Source: an uncultured Planctomycetia bacterium (GTDB taxonomy: Bacteria > Omnitrophota > Gorgyraeia > Duberdicusellales > 4484-171). From it: a stretch of DNA of 32,000 nucleotides. Shown here piece by piece: positions 483 through 22,619 of this stretch. The notes below the pieces were generated by a model, which saw only the letters and a list, made by a program, of their open reading frames with translations, was not told the DNA's origin and ran no database searches. The position numbers and the translations under genes are program-made. The DNA lies in the NCBI GenBank assembly GCA_964536865.1, contig CAZHYN010000008.1:26118-58117 (forward strand). Reading direction: 5' to 3'. Position 1 is the first letter of the stretch; each line of letters starts with the position of its first letter.

Positions 483-1025
483 ATGCTTAAACTTTCTTTA
501 CCTAAAAAAGTTAAGTTTATATGTGGGTTTATCTATTCGAACGAGGAAGATTTCTCTAAAATCAAGAAAATAATGGAGAAAAAGTACAAAGGTATAGATT
601 ATGAAAGTAAAGCAATAAAATTTGACTTTACTGATTACTATGCTAAGGAAATGGGAAGAAATTTAATAAGGAAGTTTTTATCTTTTAAAGTATTAATTAA
701 CCCTTCAGCTTTACTAAGGATTAAGCTATACACTCTTAAACTGGAGAGAAAATTTTCTTACCAGGGAAAGAGAAAGGTTAATATAGATCCAGGATATTTG
801 AATGATGCCAAGTTAGTTTTAGCCACTACTAAAAATTTTTCTCATCGTATATATTTAGGTAAGGGTATTTATGCTGAAGTTACTCTTACTTATAGGAAAG
901 GAGAATTTACTGATTTTTCCTGGACCTATCCTGATTATAGGATCCCTCAGTATAAGGATATTTTTTTAAAGATTAGAAATTTATACCTTACTCAAATTAG
1001 ATATGTTTCAAAGAAACAAAGATAA
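483..1025 (+). CDS. DUF4416-family protein (function unknown)
   Basis: 180-aa ORF starting 16 nt after the PilZ stop. The sequence (KFICGFIY..., NIDPGYLNDAKLVLATTKNFSHRIYL) matches my recollection of the DUF4416 family, which is commonly paired with a radical SAM gene. Confidence 0.65.
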   Translation: MLKLSLPKKVKFICGFIYSNEEDFSKIKKIMEKKYKGIDYESKAIKFDFTDYYAKEMGRNLIRKFLSFKVLINPSALLRIKLYTLKLERKFSYQGKRKVNIDPGYLNDAKLVLATTKNFSHRIYLGKGIYAEVTLTYRKGEFTDFSWTYPDYRIPQYKDIFLKIRNLYLTQIRYVSKKQR

Positions 1026-1935
1026 GATATATAAAATTAAAAAAAGATTAGATTATTTTTTGGCTCAATGGAGGAATTGCCAATTATGCCCTCGTAAGTG
1101 TGGAGTAGATAGGTCAAAAGAAGTGGGTTTTTGCCAGATAAAGAATCTTTCTGTCTATACTGCCTTTATCCATAGGGGAGAGGAGCCTCCTTTAGTAGGA
1201 AAAAATGGAAGTGGTGCGATTTTTTTTTCAGGGTGTAACTTAAGATGCATTTACTGCCAAAATTTTAAGTTTTCTCATCTTTGCCAGGGTAAGATCATGA
1301 ATGAACACCAATTAGCTAGTCTTATGCTTAAATTACAGGCTCAGGGAGCAGAAAATATTAATCTTGTAACTCCTACACATTTCCTACCACAGATTATAAA
1401 AGCTCTCCTTATAGCTTACCACCAAGGTTTAAATATCCCTATAGTTTATAATTCTTCAGGGTATGAGAGAACAGAAATTATAAAAGCTTTAGAAGGAATG
1501 GTGGATATATATTTGGTAGATATGAAGTATTTTACTTCTTCTGCTTCCTGGTTGGGTTCACATACTAAAGATTATCCTTTCTATAATAGAAGGGCGGTAA
1601 AAGCAATGTATCAGCAGATAGATATTCCTTTCTGGGAAGATGGGCTTTTAAAAAGAGGTATAATTATAAGGCACTTACTTCTTCCTACTATGGTTAAGGA
1701 AGCTAAGCGTATTCTTTGGTGGATAAAGGAAAATACCCCTAAGGCTTATATAAGTATTATGTTTCAGTATCGTCCTTATTTTAAAGCATCATCCGTGCCA
1801 AGGTTAAATAGGCCCCCTAATTATGAAGAGTATTTAGAAGTAAAAAAGCTGGTGGAAGAGATAGAGCTAGAAGGATGGATCCAAGAGTTTAACCCTCCCG
1901 AAGAGTTAGCCGGTGTTTACTTTAACCCTTTTTAG
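1003..1935 (+). CDS. radical SAM protein, PflX-like (pyruvate formate-lyase activase homologue, COG1313 type)
   Basis: 310 aa. Radical-SAM cluster motif CNLRCIYCQN, preceded by CQLCPRKCGVDR...GFCQ and HRGEEPP...GSGAIFFSGCN. It overlaps the DUF4416 ORF by 23 nt. Confidence 0.85.
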   Translation: MFQRNKDKIYKIKKRLDYFLAQWRNCQLCPRKCGVDRSKEVGFCQIKNLSVYTAFIHRGEEPPLVGKNGSGAIFFSGCNLRCIYCQNFKFSHLCQGKIMNEHQLASLMLKLQAQGAENINLVTPTHFLPQIIKALLIAYHQGLNIPIVYNSSGYERTEIIKALEGMVDIYLVDMKYFTSSASWLGSHTKDYPFYNRRAVKAMYQQIDIPFWEDGLLKRGIIIRHLLLPTMVKEAKRILWWIKENTPKAYISIMFQYRPYFKASSVPRLNRPPNYEEYLEVKKLVEEIELEGWIQEFNPPEELAGVYFNPF

Positions 1936-1944
1936 TTTTCACTT

Positions 1945-1961
1945 CTCAAATTTGAGTTTTT
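1945..1961 (+). terminator. weak candidate terminator after the radical SAM gene
   Basis: Palindrome CTCAAATTTGAG (1945-1956) followed by T5 (1957-1961), 10 nt after the stop at 1935. The stem is short and AT-rich. Confidence 0.3.
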
Positions 1962-1989
1962 AGGTAAATTTTAGGTAAATTAGGTAAAT
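1961..1989. repeat. three direct copies of TAGGTAAAT
   Basis: TAGGTAAAT occurs at 1961-1969, 1972-1980 and 1981-1989, with spacing of 11 and 9 nt. Confidence 0.7.
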
Positions 1990-2171
1990 ATAAGGAAGAA
2001 TACATTACTAAGAGTAAATATCCCTTTTCTTATTCACAGGTTTTTATAGTCTTTATATAATTTTTTGATTTTCAATTAGTTACAGAGAAAAAAGGTTATA
2101 ATAAAAGTTTACATAAGATATATTATCGGAAGTAACAGAAGAATAAAAAGGGATTATTCGGTAGGATAAGA

Positions 2172-2199
2172 TTTATGAATAAAGGCCGATAAGGGCCTT
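2172..2199 (-). terminator. candidate expression-platform terminator overlapping the 3' strand of riboswitch P1
   Basis: On the minus strand, AAGGCC-CUUAUC-GGCCUU (2199..2182) is followed by UAUUCAUAAAU. The hairpin uses the same nucleotides as the P1 3' strand, so P1 and the hairpin are mutually exclusive. The stem is only 6 bp and the U-tract is interrupted. Confidence 0.3.
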
Positions 2200-2350
2200 C
2201 TGTCTCGGCAGCTCAGCCACCCTAGTAGTCTCCAGGTGCCTAACTTGCTCACTATCTGGGGGCTAATAATTTAGTGAGCAACGGCTTCCTTAACTACCTT
2301 AGGTCTGTAGCTTTGCGTCCTCTGATTTCTCAGAGTTTGCCCTTATCGGC
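2185..2350 (-). promoter_or_regulatory. cyclic-di-GMP-I (GEMM-I) riboswitch aptamer
   Basis: Minus-strand RNA: GCCGAUAAGGGCAAAC-UCUGA-GAAA-UCAGAG-GACGCAAAGCU-ACAGA-CCUAAGGUAGU...ACUACUAGG-GUGGCUGAGCUGCC...GCCCUUAUCGGC. The conserved core closely parallels the V. cholerae Vc2 aptamer as I remember it (GGGCAAACC-AUUC-GAAA-GAGUGG-GACGCAAAGCC-UCCGG-CCUAAACC...). Shared elements are a GNRA(GAAA)-capped first hairpin, the GACGCAAAGC junction, a CCUAAG/CUAGG tetraloop-receptor in the second arm, and a 12-bp closing P1 (2339-2350 with 2185-2196). The second arm carries a ~60-nt insertion with a 10-bp hairpin (UUGCUCACUA/UAGUGAGCAA). Confidence 0.85.
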
Positions 2351-2357
2351 GTTATTA

Positions 2358-2387
2358 ATTATACAATATTTTTGTTCCTAATTTCAA
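2358..2387 (-). promoter_or_regulatory. sigma70-type promoter driving the riboswitch
   Basis: On the minus strand: TTGAAA (2387..2382), an 18-nt spacer, then TATAAT (2363..2358). The predicted TSS at ~2350-2351 coincides with the first nucleotide of riboswitch P1. Confidence 0.55.
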
Positions 2388-2411
2388 CCTTGCTTGAGAG
2401 AAATTTTACTA

Positions 2412-2431
2412 TTTGTGAATTCATTCACAAA
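2412..2431. promoter_or_regulatory. CRP/FNR-family-type operator (TGTGA-N6-TCACA)
   Basis: TTTGTGAAT-tc-ATTCACAAA has perfect 9-bp arms and contains the exact TGTGA-N6-TCACA core. Its centre (2421.5) lies about 71 nt upstream of the predicted riboswitch TSS, which is class-I activator spacing in E. coli. Confidence 0.45.
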
Positions 2432-2476
2432 GTTTTAACTAAGTTTATTAATTTAATTTTTATTTTTCTCTTTTTA

Positions 2477-2541
2477 TTTTTTAGGGAGCTTATTTCTCCT
2501 GAGGTAAGTAGTGATATCCAGAGGTAGTACCCCCTAAAAAA
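2477..2541. repeat. 65-nt element bounded by a perfect 10-bp inverted repeat
   Basis: TTTTTTAGGG (2477-2486) pairs with CCCTAAAAAA (2532-2541). The 45-nt interior holds two imperfect direct repeats (GAGGTAAGTAGT / GAGGTAGTAC). Confidence 0.5.
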
Positions 2542-2736
2542 TTTAGAAAGATAGTTTTCATGTATTGGAATTCCTTCCTTTCAGGCCAAGGAGACTAAAA
2601 GTATACTAAATGCAAGAATCTGGTGCAATTTCTATCTATTTTAGTCTTCAGAGAATCCACGAAAGGACTTCCTACTACTTCATTATTTTGATTTTTCAAG
2701 ATTATTCTATTCTTACAATGGATAACTCGGCCGCTA

Positions 2737-2762
2737 GGGGAGACGAAGGTCTCTTCCTCCCC
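2737..2762 (-). other. GC-rich stem-loop just downstream of the small HTH-like ORF
   Basis: GGGGAGACGAAGGTCTCTTCCTCCCC. The outer stem is GGGGAG/CTCCCC, with an inner GAAG/CTTC (alternative fold GAGAC-GAAG-GTCTC). It lies 24 nt after the stop at 2786. No U-tract follows on either strand, so it is not a canonical intrinsic terminator. Confidence 0.35.
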
Positions 2763-2785
2763 TACTCCACTTGTAAGTATGTTGC

Positions 2786-2998
2786 CTACTTTTTAAAAGC
2801 CATGCGAGAAATATCAATTGCTTTATCCTTGGCTAAGGTAGAAATATTAAATAGATGAGATAGTACATTTTTCTCTTTTTCCATTAATTGGATCAACTGA
2901 GAGGAGGAACTCTTTATAGTTATATCTTTAAACTCTGCCCAGGCAAATCTTGCTTCTGGCAACAATTTCCTAAGACGAGCACCTATTCTTATCTCCAT
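2786..2998 (-). CDS. small hypothetical protein, possibly XRE-like HTH
   Basis: 70-aa ORF with ATG at 2998. 'IGARLRKL...' followed by '...SSSQLIQLMEKEKNVLSHLFNISTLAKDKAIDISRMAF' loosely follows the XRE HTH pattern. The RBS is weak and the ORF overlaps the 3' end of the macro gene by 29 nt. Confidence 0.35.
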   Translation of the reverse strand: MEIRIGARLRKLLPEARFAWAEFKDITIKSSSSQLIQLMEKEKNVLSHLFNISTLAKDKAIDISRMAFKK

Positions 2999-3539
2999 CT
3001 TTTAATGTAGTTTTTAACTTTTTTAGAGTATTTTGATAAACTTCTAAATCAGTTTCAGAATAAAGCACAAGACGGATTCTTTTCACTTCTCTAAGTTCCT
3101 CAGCCACTTCTATTAAAGTTTGTAGAGAAATTTTAGCTGCTTCCTCTATAGGATAGCCAAAAGCACCGGTAGATATAGCAGGAAAAGCTATAGAGGTTAC
3201 TTTATTCTTTTCAGCAAGAATTAGAGCATTTTTATAGCAGGAAGCCAAAAGTTTATCCTCAGGTCTATCTATTTTGTACCTTGGTCCTAAGCAATGGATT
3301 ACATATTTATTAGGAAGGTTATAAGCTTTAGTAATTACAGCCTGACTTACCTTTATAGGGGCAAGTTTTTTGCATTCCTGATAAAGCAAGGGACCGCTAG
3401 CCTTATGTATCGCTCCTGCTACTCCTCCACCAGGAGCAAGATAAGCGTTAGCAGCATTTACTATAGCATCAAAACCAATTTGTTTAGTGATATCACCTTT
3501 TACACATTCCAGAGTTACATTTTTAATATTGATTATCAT
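2970..3539 (-). CDS. macro-domain protein (ADP-ribose binding / O-acetyl-ADP-ribose deacetylase-like)
   Basis: 189 aa. Contains DITKQIGFDAIVNAANAYLAPGGGVAGAIHKASGP and SIAFPAISTGAFGYP, which are typical macro-domain (YmdB-like) signatures. Confidence 0.85.
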   Translation of the reverse strand: MIINIKNVTLECVKGDITKQIGFDAIVNAANAYLAPGGGVAGAIHKASGPLLYQECKKLAPIKVSQAVITKAYNLPNKYVIHCLGPRYKIDRPEDKLLASCYKNALILAEKNKVTSIAFPAISTGAFGYPIEEAAKISLQTLIEVAEELREVKRIRLVLYSETDLEVYQNTLKKLKTTLKDGDKNRCSS

Positions 3540-3541
3540 CT

Positions 3542-4261
3542 TTAAATATCTTGGGAATATGTTAGATGTTTATTTATAAATTCTAAAATCTCTTTCTGTA
3601 TTTCGTGATCGATGTTATAGAATTCCAAACCCATTCCTGGATACTCCAGAGGCTGGATTTCCCTATCTGCTACCCAGATTACTCTAGTGTCAATTTCTAT
3701 AATGCCAGGTTTAGGAGATAAATTTATACGGGTTGAGAGTATCTCCCCTACAGAAAATATCTTCTTGGCTACGATAAATACTCCTATGGCGCTCAGATTC
3801 AAAACCTTTCCTTTATAGAAGAGATCTTTGGAAGAAAATTTTTGTTTATATTCAATAATGGCGTGGAAAGGAATCCTTCTAAAACGTCTTCTAAGTTTTT
3901 TCTTTAGTATTCGGTAAATGCTTTCCTCCTCTTTTAGATACCTAATTGCCTCTTCTTCGTTACTATGGAAATTAAATACTTTATTCAGTCCTACGAGAGT
4001 AAATATATTCTTAATGTGCGTAGGTACGTTACATATTTCCATCCTTCCTTTATGATTAAGAATATTTTTATATACTACAGCAAGAATGGAAATACCAATA
4101 TAGTCTATTATATTTACCTTATTAAAGTTACATACAATATTTTTAGATTTATACTTAAGAACCCAACCAGCGGTTTCTACAAAATTAGAAGCATTAATAT
4201 CAATATTTCCTGCTAAATCAAGAATAGCCACACCATCTTTATCTCTCACATTAATCGTCAT
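3542..4261 (-). CDS. STAS (anti-sigma-antagonist fold) - PilZ fusion protein
   Basis: The N-terminal part (MTINVRDKDGVAILDLAGNIDINAS...ICNVPTHIKNIFTLVGLNKVF) is STAS-like. The C-terminal part has both PilZ motifs, RRRFRR (RxxxR) and NLSAIG (NxSxxG). The track start at 4294 is a TTG. I prefer the ATG at 4261, which forms an ATGA overlap with the uppP stop. Confidence 0.75.
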   Translation of the reverse strand: MTINVRDKDGVAILDLAGNIDINASNFVETAGWVLKYKSKNIVCNFNKVNIIDYIGISILAVVYKNILNHKGRMEICNVPTHIKNIFTLVGLNKVFNFHSNEEEAIRYLKEEESIYRILKKKLRRRFRRIPFHAIIEYKQKFSSKDLFYKGKVLNLSAIGVFIVAKKIFSVGEILSTRINLSPKPGIIEIDTRVIWVADREIQPLEYPGMGLEFYNIDHEIQKEILEFINKHLTYSQDI

Positions 4262-4992
4262 AAGAATACTGTTAGCACAGCTAATACCAAACAATAATAG
4301 CCAAATTTATAAAGTTTACTCTCTTCTAAAAACTTTCTTAGAATACTTAGCGAACCTACTCCTACTAAGAAAGTTAGAATAAAGCTAAATATTAAAAGAG
4401 GACTACCCAATTTATATTGGAAAAGACTATTTGCTTCTACTAAGAAGGCTGCTAAGATTACAGGAATTGCTAGTAAGAAAGAAAAATTGAATGCCTCCCT
4501 TTTGCTAAGTCCTCTCCCCAAAGAAGCCACTATAGTTACTCCTGAGCGAGATATTCCTGGTAAGATTGCCAATCCTTGGAGAATCCCTATCAAGATACAC
4601 TCTTTAATAGAAAGTTCCTTAGCAAGTTTTTCGTCTCCTTTCTTAAAAAATAAAAGGATTAAGCTAGTAAAGAGAAAACCTATTGCGATAAGTATTTTTT
4701 CTCCAAAGTAAACTTGAGCACTGATCATTATTAGATAGGCTAATAATAAAGTAACTAAAGAAGTTATAGTCAAATTTATGAGAATTTTTCTATCTTGGAT
4801 ATAAGATATAATTTCTTTACGAAGATATACAATAATAGCTAATAGCGTAGCTAAGTGAAGATAAGTAAAAAAAGGTAGTGATTCGGATCTTACTTGAAGA
4901 ATTCTCTCAGCAAGAAATAGGTGTCCACTACTACTTATTGGAAGAAACTCTGTGATCCCTTGAATTAGACTAAAAATAAAAACTTCTTTCAC
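4258..4992 (-). CDS. uppP: undecaprenyl-diphosphate phosphatase
   Basis: 244-aa polytopic membrane protein with the BacA/UppP signatures GITEFLPISSSGHL and LPGISRSG. It has a GTG start that forms a GTGA overlap with the upstream ORF. Confidence 0.9.
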   Translation of the reverse strand: MKEVFIFSLIQGITEFLPISSSGHLFLAERILQVRSESLPFFTYLHLATLLAIIVYLRKEIISYIQDRKILINLTITSLVTLLLAYLIMISAQVYFGEKILIAIGFLFTSLILLFFKKGDEKLAKELSIKECILIGILQGLAILPGISRSGVTIVASLGRGLSKREAFNFSFLLAIPVILAAFLVEANSLFQYKLGSPLLIFSFILTFLVGVGSLSILRKFLEESKLYKFGYYCLVLAVLTVFL

Positions 4993-5821: not shown

Positions 5822-5846
5822 TTTACCTCCTTATAAAAACAGAACT

Positions 5847-5874
5847 ATTTTATCACAATTACTTGATATCACAA
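5847..5874 (-). promoter_or_regulatory. candidate promoter for rpsU
   Basis: On the minus strand: TTGTGA (5874..5869), a 16-nt spacer, then TAAAAT (5852..5847), with a TG at the extended -10 position. Confidence 0.4.
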
Positions 5875-6199
5875 AGAAATATTTTAAGAAATGTAGGATA
5901 TAATGGCTTGAGATGCTTTTCTCGCCATTTCCATTGCTTCGATTACTGTTTCTCATCTTTTTATAATGCCTCCTCCGGCATGCACTCCTTTAAGAGAAGT
6001 TTATAATATTGATGAGTCTACACCAATATAACTTTCCTTCTTCTTTAGCATGGATGTATTCTATCTTTCTTGAGGCATTTCTTTCTCGTTTCGTCTATAT
6101 ATGATTGTGACTTTTGATTTTCACCTTTTTACTCTCTTTCTACAATCCTTAATTTATTCACTTTTGCTAGTGCTCTCTTGTTTATAATTTTCATGCTAA

Positions 6200-9174
<2,975 letters not shown>

Positions 9175-21545: not shown

Positions 21546-22619
21546 CTATTTGATAGCGAGCTTCTGGTAAATACGGTTATGCATATCTATTTCTTTGAAA
21601 ATTAATCTTGCCTCAAAAACTAAAGTTTCTGATTTACCGATTATTAGATAACCCCCTTCCTTAAGAGAACGATAAAACTTATCTACAATTTGCTCTTGTA
21701 AAGCCTTAGTAAAATAGATAAATACATTCCTACAGGTTATTATATCAACATCTTCAAGATAAGGGGAACCTATCAAATCTAAATAACGAAATTCTACCAT
21801 CTTCTTTATTATTGGTTTTATATAATATTTATCTCCTTTTATCACAAAATACTTCTCCAGAAACTCTCTCTTTACATTCTTAGTTCGTATATAATCATAG
21901 GTACCCTCCTCTGCTTCCTTTAAGCAATCTCGATCGATATCGGTAGCATAAATTTTAAAAGGAACACCCTCCTTGTTTATTTCTCTCATCATTATCGCTA
22001 AAGAATAAGCTTCTTCTCCTTTAGCACAGCCAGCACTCCATAAATTTAAAGAAACGCCCTTATCTTTATAAGAAGCTATTAACTCCTTCAAGAGTCTTTC
22101 AATAGATATCCATACAGAATAATCTCTAAAAAACTCAGAAACATTTATGGTAAGGACTTCAAATAACTTCTCATACTCTTTAGGATCAGTAGCTAAAACA
22201 TGAAGATATTCGCTATAAGATTTTGATTTTGTCGCTGAAACTCTTAAGGCAATTCTTCTCTTTAGGATACCTCGATGATATAAACTAAAGTCTACTCCTC
22301 GGTCTTGCTTTATCTTATTAAGGAGATTATCAAACTCTCTTTCTCTATCGTAGTCAGAAGGATGAGGAAGATTTTTACTTACCTTCTCTATCGCCTCATT
22401 AATCGCACCGAATATCTCTTTAGAATACTTCTTTATTAATTCTCTCTCGATTTCCTGATAAGAAGGGCTGGCATCATCAGCATAGACAGGAGGAAATTTA
22501 TTTACAAGATAACTCAACATTGCTTTCTTACATTTTTCACATGTACAGATATCAAATTTTAGATTAAGATGTCTATCTAAGAAGTATTTTAAAAGTCCTT
22601 CCAAGATATTTTTTTTCAT
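21546..22619 (-). CDS. ComFB-domain / CheR-type protein-glutamate methyltransferase fusion
   Basis: 357 aa. The N-terminal ~60 aa have the ComFB pattern (DICTCEKCKKAMLSYLVNKFPPVY). These are followed by a CheR N-domain (VDFSLYHRGILKRRIALRV) and a SAM-binding domain (LWSAGCAKGEEAYSLAIMM, ITCRNVFIYF). Confidence 0.8.
   Translation of the reverse strand: MKKNILEGLLKYFLDRHLNLKFDICTCEKCKKAMLSYLVNKFPPVYADDASPSYQEIERELIKKYSKEIFGAINEAIEKVSKNLPHPSDYDREREFDNLLNKIKQDRGVDFSLYHRGILKRRIALRVSATKSKSYSEYLHVLATDPKEYEKLFEVLTINVSEFFRDYSVWISIERLLKELIASYKDKGVSLNLWSAGCAKGEEAYSLAIMMREINKEGVPFKIYATDIDRDCLKEAEEGTYDYIRTKNVKREFLEKYFVIKGDKYYIKPIIKKMVEFRYLDLIGSPYLEDVDIITCRNVFIYFTKALQEQIVDKFYRSLKEGGYLIIGKSETLVFEARLIFKEIDMHNRIYQKLAIK

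Follow-up and report, generated by a model that had tools for sequence, protein, structure and literature searches.

Can a second-messenger aptamer act alone, as a buffer for its messenger or as a ligand-stabilised RNA, instead of serving as a gene switch? This open question is raised by a riboswitch for cyclic di-GMP (c-di-GMP) that lies on the minus strand of a 32,000-nucleotide (nt) stretch of a Candidatus Omnitrophota chromosome (the window, whose positions are the coordinates used throughout). A sequence-only reading of this window had described the element as a stand-alone unit with nothing to regulate, and had proposed an autonomous RNA of ~170-180 nt rather than a 5' leader. Our analyses bear the proposal out in its main point: judging from the extent of the conserved sequence, the element is most likely a small-RNA gene and not a 5' leader, and we assign a probability of about 0.55 to the reading that it gives rise to an autonomous c-di-GMP-binding RNA of ~170-176 nt, which has its own promoter and acts in trans.

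The identity of the aptamer could be settled with the covariance model of the family, which matches 2204..2351 (-) with 73.2 bits against a gathering threshold of 35 (RF01051, c-di-GMP-I; E 9.6e-13). The match spans the full model (1-87), with 63 nt inserted into the loop of its second arm, and is the single Rfam hit across the whole window; around the riboswitch (850-nt intergenic region, or 1.2 kb, with E values up to 10), other Rfam families gave noise only. The core segments GGCAAAC, GACGCAAAGC and GCCGA all agree with the consensus, the junction segments AAGGGCAAAC, GACGCAAAGC and GCCGAG do so at high posterior probability, and the two-arm layout is present, as the GAAA loop (2329..2326) and the CCUAAG receptor (2303..2298) both align to the consensus. 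We take the ligand-contact junction nucleotides to be the equivalents of G20, A47 and C92 of Vc2, and a G, not an A, at the presumed G20 position would argue for c-di-GMP over cyclic GMP-AMP as the ligand. By all these features of its sequence, the element is a c-di-GMP-I (GEMM-I) riboswitch aptamer and a member of RF01051, as had been claimed. It resembles the canonical members of the family (Vc2, Cd1, Bc1/Bc2) in sequence, secondary structure, tetraloop and receptor, and junction nucleotides, and differs from them in lacking a regulated cistron, in the 7-nt variable linker between the core and the 3' strand of the closing helix P1, and in the 63-nt extension of the second arm with its conserved C-rich loop.

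What the unit consists of became apparent from a comparison with its closest relatives. The radical-SAM protein encoded next to the unit assigns the window to Candidatus Omnitrophota. Protein-anchored searches for a comparative set recovered one sister species only (88-89% identity), represented by a Guaymas Basin metagenome-assembled genome (L002, 88% protein identity) and by a 65-kb contig of the Joint Genome Institute that is a second, independent assembly of the same species (L041). In both, the riboswitch lies in the same place and in the same orphan layout (66.8 bits against RF01051 for the L002 homolog), whereas the next relatives found in these searches are at most 63% identical and have no c-di-GMP riboswitch. 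The promoter TTGAAA-18-TATAAT at 2387..2358 (-), already noted at the start of the aptamer, agrees with the consensus at 11 of 12 positions and is the joint best within 20 kb. The first nucleotide of the aptamer follows the end of the -10 hexamer at a distance of 7 nt, and from this spacing alone the transcription start is presumed to be at ~2351/2350, 7-8 nt past the -10 hexamer. Neither promoter-like nor terminator-like patterns are more frequent in this AT-rich genome than in shuffled sequence, and the promoter-like matches, taken together, are as many as expected by chance (60 found versus 60.4 in shuffles), so that support for the promoter call comes from the sister species, in which both hexamers are unchanged and the 18-nt spacer carries three substitutions. 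A sigma-28 reading of GCCGATAA and TCCGATAA was rejected, as no fitting -35 element is present and the two stretches correspond to the P1 strand and to the XerC arm of the dif site described below.

Between window and L002, the riboswitch (2185-2351) is 91% identical, compared with 73-80% at third codon positions, and with 43% (1936-1984) and 59% (2134-2184) in unconstrained intergenic DNA. This excess of conservation is significant against the third-position rate (P = 2e-6) as well as against the rate of the neighbouring intergenic DNA (P = 2e-20). All 54 of the 54 predicted pairs are kept in L002, one by a compensatory and three by one-sided, pair-preserving changes, and the remaining differences are confined to loops or the linker of the joint structure. 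Conservation falls just upstream of the -35 hexamer and directly after the U-rich tract that follows P1. Since the conserved blocks further downstream and a palindrome further upstream also occur in relatives without the riboswitch, the riboswitch-specific island can be bounded at ~2390..2175, and on sequence grounds it is the footprint of a small, self-contained gene: the RNA appears self-contained because conservation is high from the promoter to the U-tract and only 59% right after it.

A classical cis-acting riboswitch is located within the 5' untranslated region of the gene or operon it regulates. Here, the next features are a dif site and a convergent gene, and on the minus strand no open reading frame (ORF) of at least 20 codons follows the riboswitch. 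A small product encoded on either strand was also considered and rejected, as the full frame listing of both species contains no conserved ORF of at least 10 codons. The 19-codon frame that had been named as the longest one starting with ATG does exist in the window, with its start changed to ATA in L002. It runs through three direct copies of ATTTACCTAA (minus-strand reading) at ~1960-1992, between the stop codon of the convergent gene and a conserved motif, and these repeats are absent from L002. The convergent gene, which encodes a radical-SAM protein (1003..1935, +), is reached after a spacer that had been regarded simply as ~250 nt of AT-rich DNA; the gene is as described, but the spacer holds the dif site and the second conserved motif.

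The dif site at 2106-2133 has the 28-bp arm-core-arm layout with a 6-bp core, and is identical to dif of B. subtilis (ACTTCCTAGAATATATATTATGTAAACT; reference dif sequences: PMC3025954) at 25 of 28 positions and to dif of E. coli at 19 of 28, with a maximum of 18-20 for shuffled sequences. It is present in a single copy (next best site 19/28), the GC skew changes from +0.14 on its left side to -0.17 across the 30 kb on its right, and the ORFs converge on it, those to the left being on the plus strand and those to the right on the minus strand. Because of the sequence identity, the skew flip and the converging ORFs, we regard 2106-2133 as the site of chromosome dimer resolution at the replication terminus. 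In layout, copy number and skew shift it is like the chromosomal dif sites targeted by XerC/XerD, with the difference that in Omnitrophota it is called from sequence; no xer gene lies within the window. The skew likewise flips in L002, L025 and L026, and dif follows the same radical-SAM gene also in L002 (7096-7123), L025 (~6094-6121), L026 (5917-5944), L042 (1275-1302) and L003, at a distance of 84-170 nt in all Omnitrophota relatives compared. As the end of the riboswitch unit is ~41 nt away from dif, no other transcription unit follows it on its replichore, judging by its position in the sequence, and this terminus geometry accounts for the convergent gene as well as for the absent cistron. 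The earlier statement that there is nothing to regulate was therefore correct with respect to a downstream cistron, but it had missed that the unit points at dif, which is also the reason for the convergent gene.

Two blocks downstream of the unit are 92-93% identical between window and L002, and both are single-copy. Block 1 is dif itself and is also present in the riboswitch-less L042, L003, L025 and L026 (only 59-63% identical), and the core of block 2, TTATTCACAGGTTTTTAT, recurs in L025 and L026. The region is nearly without conserved structure (-11 kcal/mol over 270 columns). The idea that the blocks are parts of a read-through small RNA (sRNA) of the EutX/Rli55 type was rejected, as block 1 is dif and the core of block 2 is found in relatives that have no riboswitch.

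With regard to the 3' end, a small hairpin with an interrupted U-tract had been noted over the 3' strand of P1. In the minimum-energy fold (z = -4.5), the whole aptamer is closed by a 12-bp P1 helix (2350-2339 with 2196-2185), which as an isolated duplex amounts to -22.8 kcal/mol and has a pair probability of ~1.0 in window and L002, also for an RNA truncated at the site of a termination decision. It is this helix, leading into the U-rich tract, that is conserved. The small hairpin does exist (2199-2182, -10.5 kcal/mol), but it does not qualify as an intrinsic terminator, has lost a G-C pair in L002 (-5.7 kcal/mol), and its probability is ~0 when it competes with P1. As a separate expression platform it has the overlap with the P1 3' strand in its favour, yet it is weak, its strength is not conserved and P1 out-competes it. 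The only terminator-like element of the unit is the long-range P1 helix with the U-rich tract. In the window, one C follows the P1 3' strand before the tract UUUAUUCAU, and the corresponding tract of L002, UUUUUAUUUUCU, has an A-tract ahead.

The insertion in the second arm, noted before as ~60 nt and unusual, is present with 63 nt, but such insertions are not unusual, as unrelated metagenomic examples exist. A metagenome scan for GEMM-I elements with long second-arm insertions returned the sister species and unrelated high-GC riboswitches only; the insertions of the latter are non-homologous, and an ordinary ORF lies 100-430 nt downstream of each. On the sequences compared, the orphan layout is lineage-specific. 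A pseudoknot between GCCCCC in the insertion loop and GGGUGG, as suggested earlier, is unlikely, as GGGUGG belongs to the aptamer's own conserved second-arm pairing, a bulged nucleotide would be needed, and the predicted duplex weakens from -10.4 to -7.0 kcal/mol in L002 through a G to A change. The loop segment AGCCCCCA is nevertheless unchanged between window and L002 while the rest of the loop varies, including a 2-nt indel, and its conservation in the sequences is real. Among the high-GC contigs, L039 (3424-3900) and L032/L034, which are unrelated to the window, carry tandem c-di-GMP-I aptamers, with a large insertion once in the first and once in the second arm, ahead of an ORF of 357-463 amino acids (aa).

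According to the favoured reading of an autonomous RNA, a sigma-70-type promoter would start transcription at about 2351, and the RNA would adopt the full fold of a c-di-GMP-I aptamer whose second arm is extended, with the first 12 and last 12 nt of the RNA forming the P1 helix that leads straight into the U-rich tract. Transcription would end at the U-tract on the P1 stem, or the RNA would be trimmed back to P1, and a P1-closed RNA of about 170-176 nt would result. A cistron would be missing for positional reasons, the unit being the last one on its replichore, with dif close by and the end of the opposite replichore beyond it. In a first version, the RNA would be a buffer or sponge for c-di-GMP, as proposed for merRNA of Bdellovibrio, and in a second version its lifetime would be set by ligand-stabilised closure of P1, as with the Vc2-capped sRNAs of V. 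cholerae. The features of a stand-alone riboswitch RNA of the merRNA type that are found here are its own promoter, an aptamer and the lack of a conserved downstream ORF; ligand binding, transcript ends and the action in trans are inferred.

Several points speak against this reading. The unit is present in two species only, so the power of the comparison is low. A scan for intrinsic terminators, taken as a G+C-rich hairpin with a short loop and a U-run right behind it, gave 0 sites in the window region 1500-3200 and in L002 6850-7600, hairpin-plus-U terminators are not enriched in the genome (7 found versus 13.8 in shuffles), and the U-tract of the window is interrupted; because of the negative scan and the missing enrichment, the placement of the 3' end at the U-tract is weakly founded. 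Furthermore, the fully zipped P1 takes up the GGGC junction nucleotides that are needed for the ligand pocket. Forcing the canonical junction costs 1.6 kcal/mol in the window, where a 10-bp P1 remains, and 3.2 kcal/mol in L002, and given this low cost some switching of P1 may occur in the modelled RNA. The cost is small enough that ligand binding could, according to the folding model, shift the top of P1 without opening the helix. A sponge role would also demand very high expression, which is beyond what a sequence allows one to judge.

We would like to emphasize that precedents for such RNAs exist, and that they are not limited to the one that had been named as the only case. The merRNA of Bdellovibrio bacteriovorus is a massively expressed transcript of 445 nt that extends ~300 nt past its aptamer (PMC3627812). 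Like the window unit, it is a non-coding transcript that begins with a c-di-GMP-I aptamer at its 5' end, is made from a promoter of its own and is followed by no conserved ORF, it occurs in a narrow lineage, and its proposed action is the binding of c-di-GMP and not the control of a cistron; the sponge role has been a proposal without test since 2013 (10.1101/617340). The likeness consists in the shared aptamer family and arrangement, and two differences are evident: the extreme expression of merRNA has been measured, whereas the window unit is known from its sequence, and merRNA is far longer than the predicted ~170-176 nt, as the riboswitch-specific conservation of the window stops at ~2175 and is followed by dif. 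In V. cholerae, the sRNAs capped by Vc2 have their 3' end protected by the closure of P1, which the ligand stabilises, and the aptamer itself is the expression platform (10.1101/617340). A longer upstream RNA carries Vc2 at its 3' end, and Vc2 regulates the downstream tfoY as well, whereas the window unit has no downstream gene, its aptamer is essentially the whole RNA, and its P1 is much longer (12 bp). In C. difficile, c-di-GMP-I riboswitches precede the antisense RNAs RCd11 and RCd12, and an orphan lies between CD2517 and CD2517.1 (PMC11477304). These riboswitches are likewise of class I with a non-coding, antisense or unknown output, but they belong to a different phylum and to antisense RNAs of type I toxin-antitoxin loci, and neither a type I toxin nor another toxin-like ORF was found opposite the riboswitch RNA in the window.

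The arrangement is thus rare but described before, and the window unit joins a small set of cistron-less riboswitch RNAs, extending a known concept to the Omnitrophota. It is set apart by its compactness, the long P1 that abuts the U-tract, the extended arm with the C-rich loop, and the adjacency to dif in an omnitrophotal chromosome. With about 175 nt it is clearly bounded and lacks the long 3' tail of merRNA, and since it is compact, bounded and under selection in two species, it constitutes a clean in vitro substrate for analyses of binding, termination and exonuclease protection.

A different output of the same elements would be a conditional terminator, in which c-di-GMP selects either P1 or the small local hairpin, and escaping transcripts cross dif into the convergent PilZ-PilZ-DUF4416-radical-SAM operon and lower its expression by antisense pairing or transcriptional interference. 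The overlap of the P1 3' strand with a local hairpin that is followed by U residues is a classic layout of termination control, the scan gave no terminator on the minus strand from the unit to the radical-SAM gene, and regulation would make sense for an operon that encodes two PilZ receptors of c-di-GMP. There are also precedents in the B12 riboswitch/AspocR system of Listeria and in the C. difficile riboswitches ahead of RCd11/RCd12. What renders this less likely is that the local hairpin is weakened in L002 and at equilibrium practically never forms against P1, that the sequence just downstream is unconstrained (59%), and that the conserved blocks beyond it are features of the terminus and not of the riboswitch. 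The more distant relatives (at most 63% identical) keep the synteny of the operon without any riboswitch and differ in the genes on the other side, and one would expect selection against transcription that crosses dif and is head-on to the other replichore.

The position next to dif could also have a structural meaning, the unit being a stable two-way transcription stop that shields dif, with the aptamer kept for its stem or for a modulation by c-di-GMP. Such an insulator would be well placed where the replichores converge, with dif 41 nt away, U-rich sequence borders the 12-bp helix on the minus strand as well as in the plus-strand transcript (GUUAUUAAUUAU), and ordinary terminators are not enriched in this genome. 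We consider it unlikely, as the dedicated, conserved promoter would be left without explanation, the relatives do without the unit, and the conserved ligand-contact nucleotides and the whole aptamer exceed what a stem would need.

A third explanation sees the unit as a relic, a 5' leader that lost its gene in a rearrangement of the terminus and is itself on the way out. The unit does lie at a synteny breakpoint, where each lineage has a different segment from dif to the palindrome, and the next gene upstream is, in the window, a pseudogene. Selection on the conserved island argues against decay, as purifying selection on sequence and structure is strong in two species and the promoter hexamers are intact in both, while nearby neutral DNA is already down to 43-59% identity, and a relic is therefore quite improbable. 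Very unlikely, and more speculative, is a c-di-GMP-gated unit that acts on dif itself, in which the polymerase, upon a change of the messenger level, either stops at the P1/U-tract or crosses dif and displaces or blocks XerCD/FtsK, and which, if true, would couple the state of the second messenger to dimer resolution and cell division, or, alternatively, a promoter-carrying cassette that is exchanged by Xer into the slot between dif and the palindrome. That the unit is the leader of an overlooked, very small ORF has a precedent in C. difficile, where some 'orphan' c-di-GMP-I riboswitches control tiny proteins (2026 preprint, 10.64898/2026.06.10.731418), and a 13-codon TTG frame (about 2075..2034, -) has the same length and reading frame in the two species, but this frame lies beyond dif, has no Shine-Dalgarno sequence and differs in 5 of 13 residues, all by nonsynonymous changes, the 19-codon frame has no ATG in L002 and no further ORF is shared, so there is next to no probability left for this idea.

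The features of the locus are compiled in Table 1.

Table 1. Features of the riboswitch unit and of the adjoining terminus region, in window coordinates.
Feature	Position	Strand	Remark
Palindrome TGTGA-N6-TCACA	2414..2429	.	upstream of the riboswitch promoter, centre at -70.5 from the presumed start; terminus-linked, context
-35 hexamer TTGAAA	2382..2387	-	11/12 with 18-nt spacer; identical in L002
-10 hexamer TATAAT	2358..2363	-	part of the 11/12 promoter; identical in L002
c-di-GMP-I (GEMM-I) aptamer	2204..2351	-	RF01051, 73.2 bits
P1 5' strand GCCGAUAAGGGC	2339..2350	-	pairs with 2196..2185; C to U in L002 keeps a G.U pair
First-arm hairpin CUCUGA-GAAA-UCAGAG, GAAA tetraloop	2320..2335	-	identical in L002
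Second arm, CCUAAG receptor half and ~63-nt extension	2213..2312	-	all pairs kept in L002
10-bp extension hairpin UUGCUCACUA / UAGUGAGCAA	2245..2281	-	compensatory G-C to A-U, columns 73:107
C-rich apical loop segment AGCCCCCA	2257..2264	-	invariant in L002
Variable linker, aptamer core to P1 3' strand	2197..2203	-	ACAGAAG versus -UAAAAA in L002
P1 3' strand GCCCUUAUCGGC	2185..2196	-	invariant in L002
Local hairpin AAGGCC-CUUAUC-GGCCUU	2182..2199	-	excludes P1 and vice versa
U-rich tract UUUAUUCAU	2175..2183	-	presumed 3' end region; UUUUUAUUUUCU in L002
Gap between RNA unit and dif	2134..2174	.	poorly conserved, indels versus L002
dif site ACTTCCGATAA-TATATC-TTATGTAAACT	2106..2133	-	25/28 to B. 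subtilis dif; context, outside the RNA
Terminus motif TTCTTATTCACAGGTTTTTAT, core of block 2	2024..2047	+	also in riboswitch-less relatives; context

Two further elements accompany dif. On its XerD-arm side, at a distance of 60-100 bp, lies the motif TTATTCACA[GA]GTTTTTAT, preceded by AAGTAAA, which is found with or without the riboswitch (window 2024-2047, +; L002 ~7014-7037; L025 ~6012-6035; L026 ~5838-5858) and which at 2024-2047 is similar to a palindrome half and has the same orientation. A plus-strand promoter TTCACA-17-TATAAT at 2033-2061 (11/12), which could have driven an RNA antisense to the riboswitch, was rejected, as its -10 is TGTAAT in L002 and the promoter was not recovered there; by its sequence it is probably fortuitous, with its TTCACA belonging to this motif. 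On the XerC-arm side, 280-1173 bp from dif, lies the palindrome TTGTGAA-N4-TTCACAA, a perfect CRP/FNR-type TGTGA-N6-TCACA that is present once per locus (window 2414-2429; L002 7458-7473; L041 7789-7804; L025 6527-6542; L026 7118-7133) and has no other occurrence in 93 kb. It precedes each of the units that face dif, be it the riboswitch, the HTH_3 gene or the cellulase-family gene. A CRP-type activation of the riboswitch promoter is weakened as an explanation, given a spacing of -70.5 from the presumed start in the window versus -116.5 in L002, where a net insertion of ~46 nt with (ATTAG)n-like repeats lies between palindrome and promoter (~7390-7450), and it also counts against such an activation that the palindrome adjoins dif in lineages with other genes. 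Candidate functions are an operator, a Ter-like site or a cassette boundary. Together with its flanking motifs, dif constitutes a terminus landmark for uncultured Omnitrophota genomes.

The segment from dif to the palindrome is a variable slot (window 2134-2413; L025 6122-6526; L026 5945-7117) that is occupied by the riboswitch RNA gene in the window and in L002/L041, by a gene for a 72-aa HTH_3 protein in L025 and by a gene for a 377-aa glycoside hydrolase in L026, all of which point at dif. An exchange of cassettes by Xer is only a suggestion, as no second dif-like site was found. For the same reason (best site 19/28), and as the flanking genes are housekeeping genes, an integrative mobile element exploiting Xer (IMEX) or another integrated element was rejected.

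Just upstream of the riboswitch unit, at ~2490-2998 (-), the window contains the pseudogene of a B3/4-domain protein, in which codon 70 is followed by a stop, the middle part is missing and another stop occurs in frame, and L002 encodes an intact protein of 222 aa at the corresponding site (7536-8204; PF03483). Receptors of c-di-GMP are encoded nearby, namely three PilZ proteins (111-467; 3542-4294, fused to STAS; and an operon partner seen in relatives) and a ComFB-CheR fusion protein at 21546-22619 (-). The cells of Omnitrophota are tiny, probably depend on a host and have many receptors of the PilZ and ComFB type, and ComFB has recently been described as a family of receptors for cyclic dinucleotides. 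The ComFB-CheR fusion suggests that chemotaxis methylation is tied to cyclic dinucleotides in the window organism.

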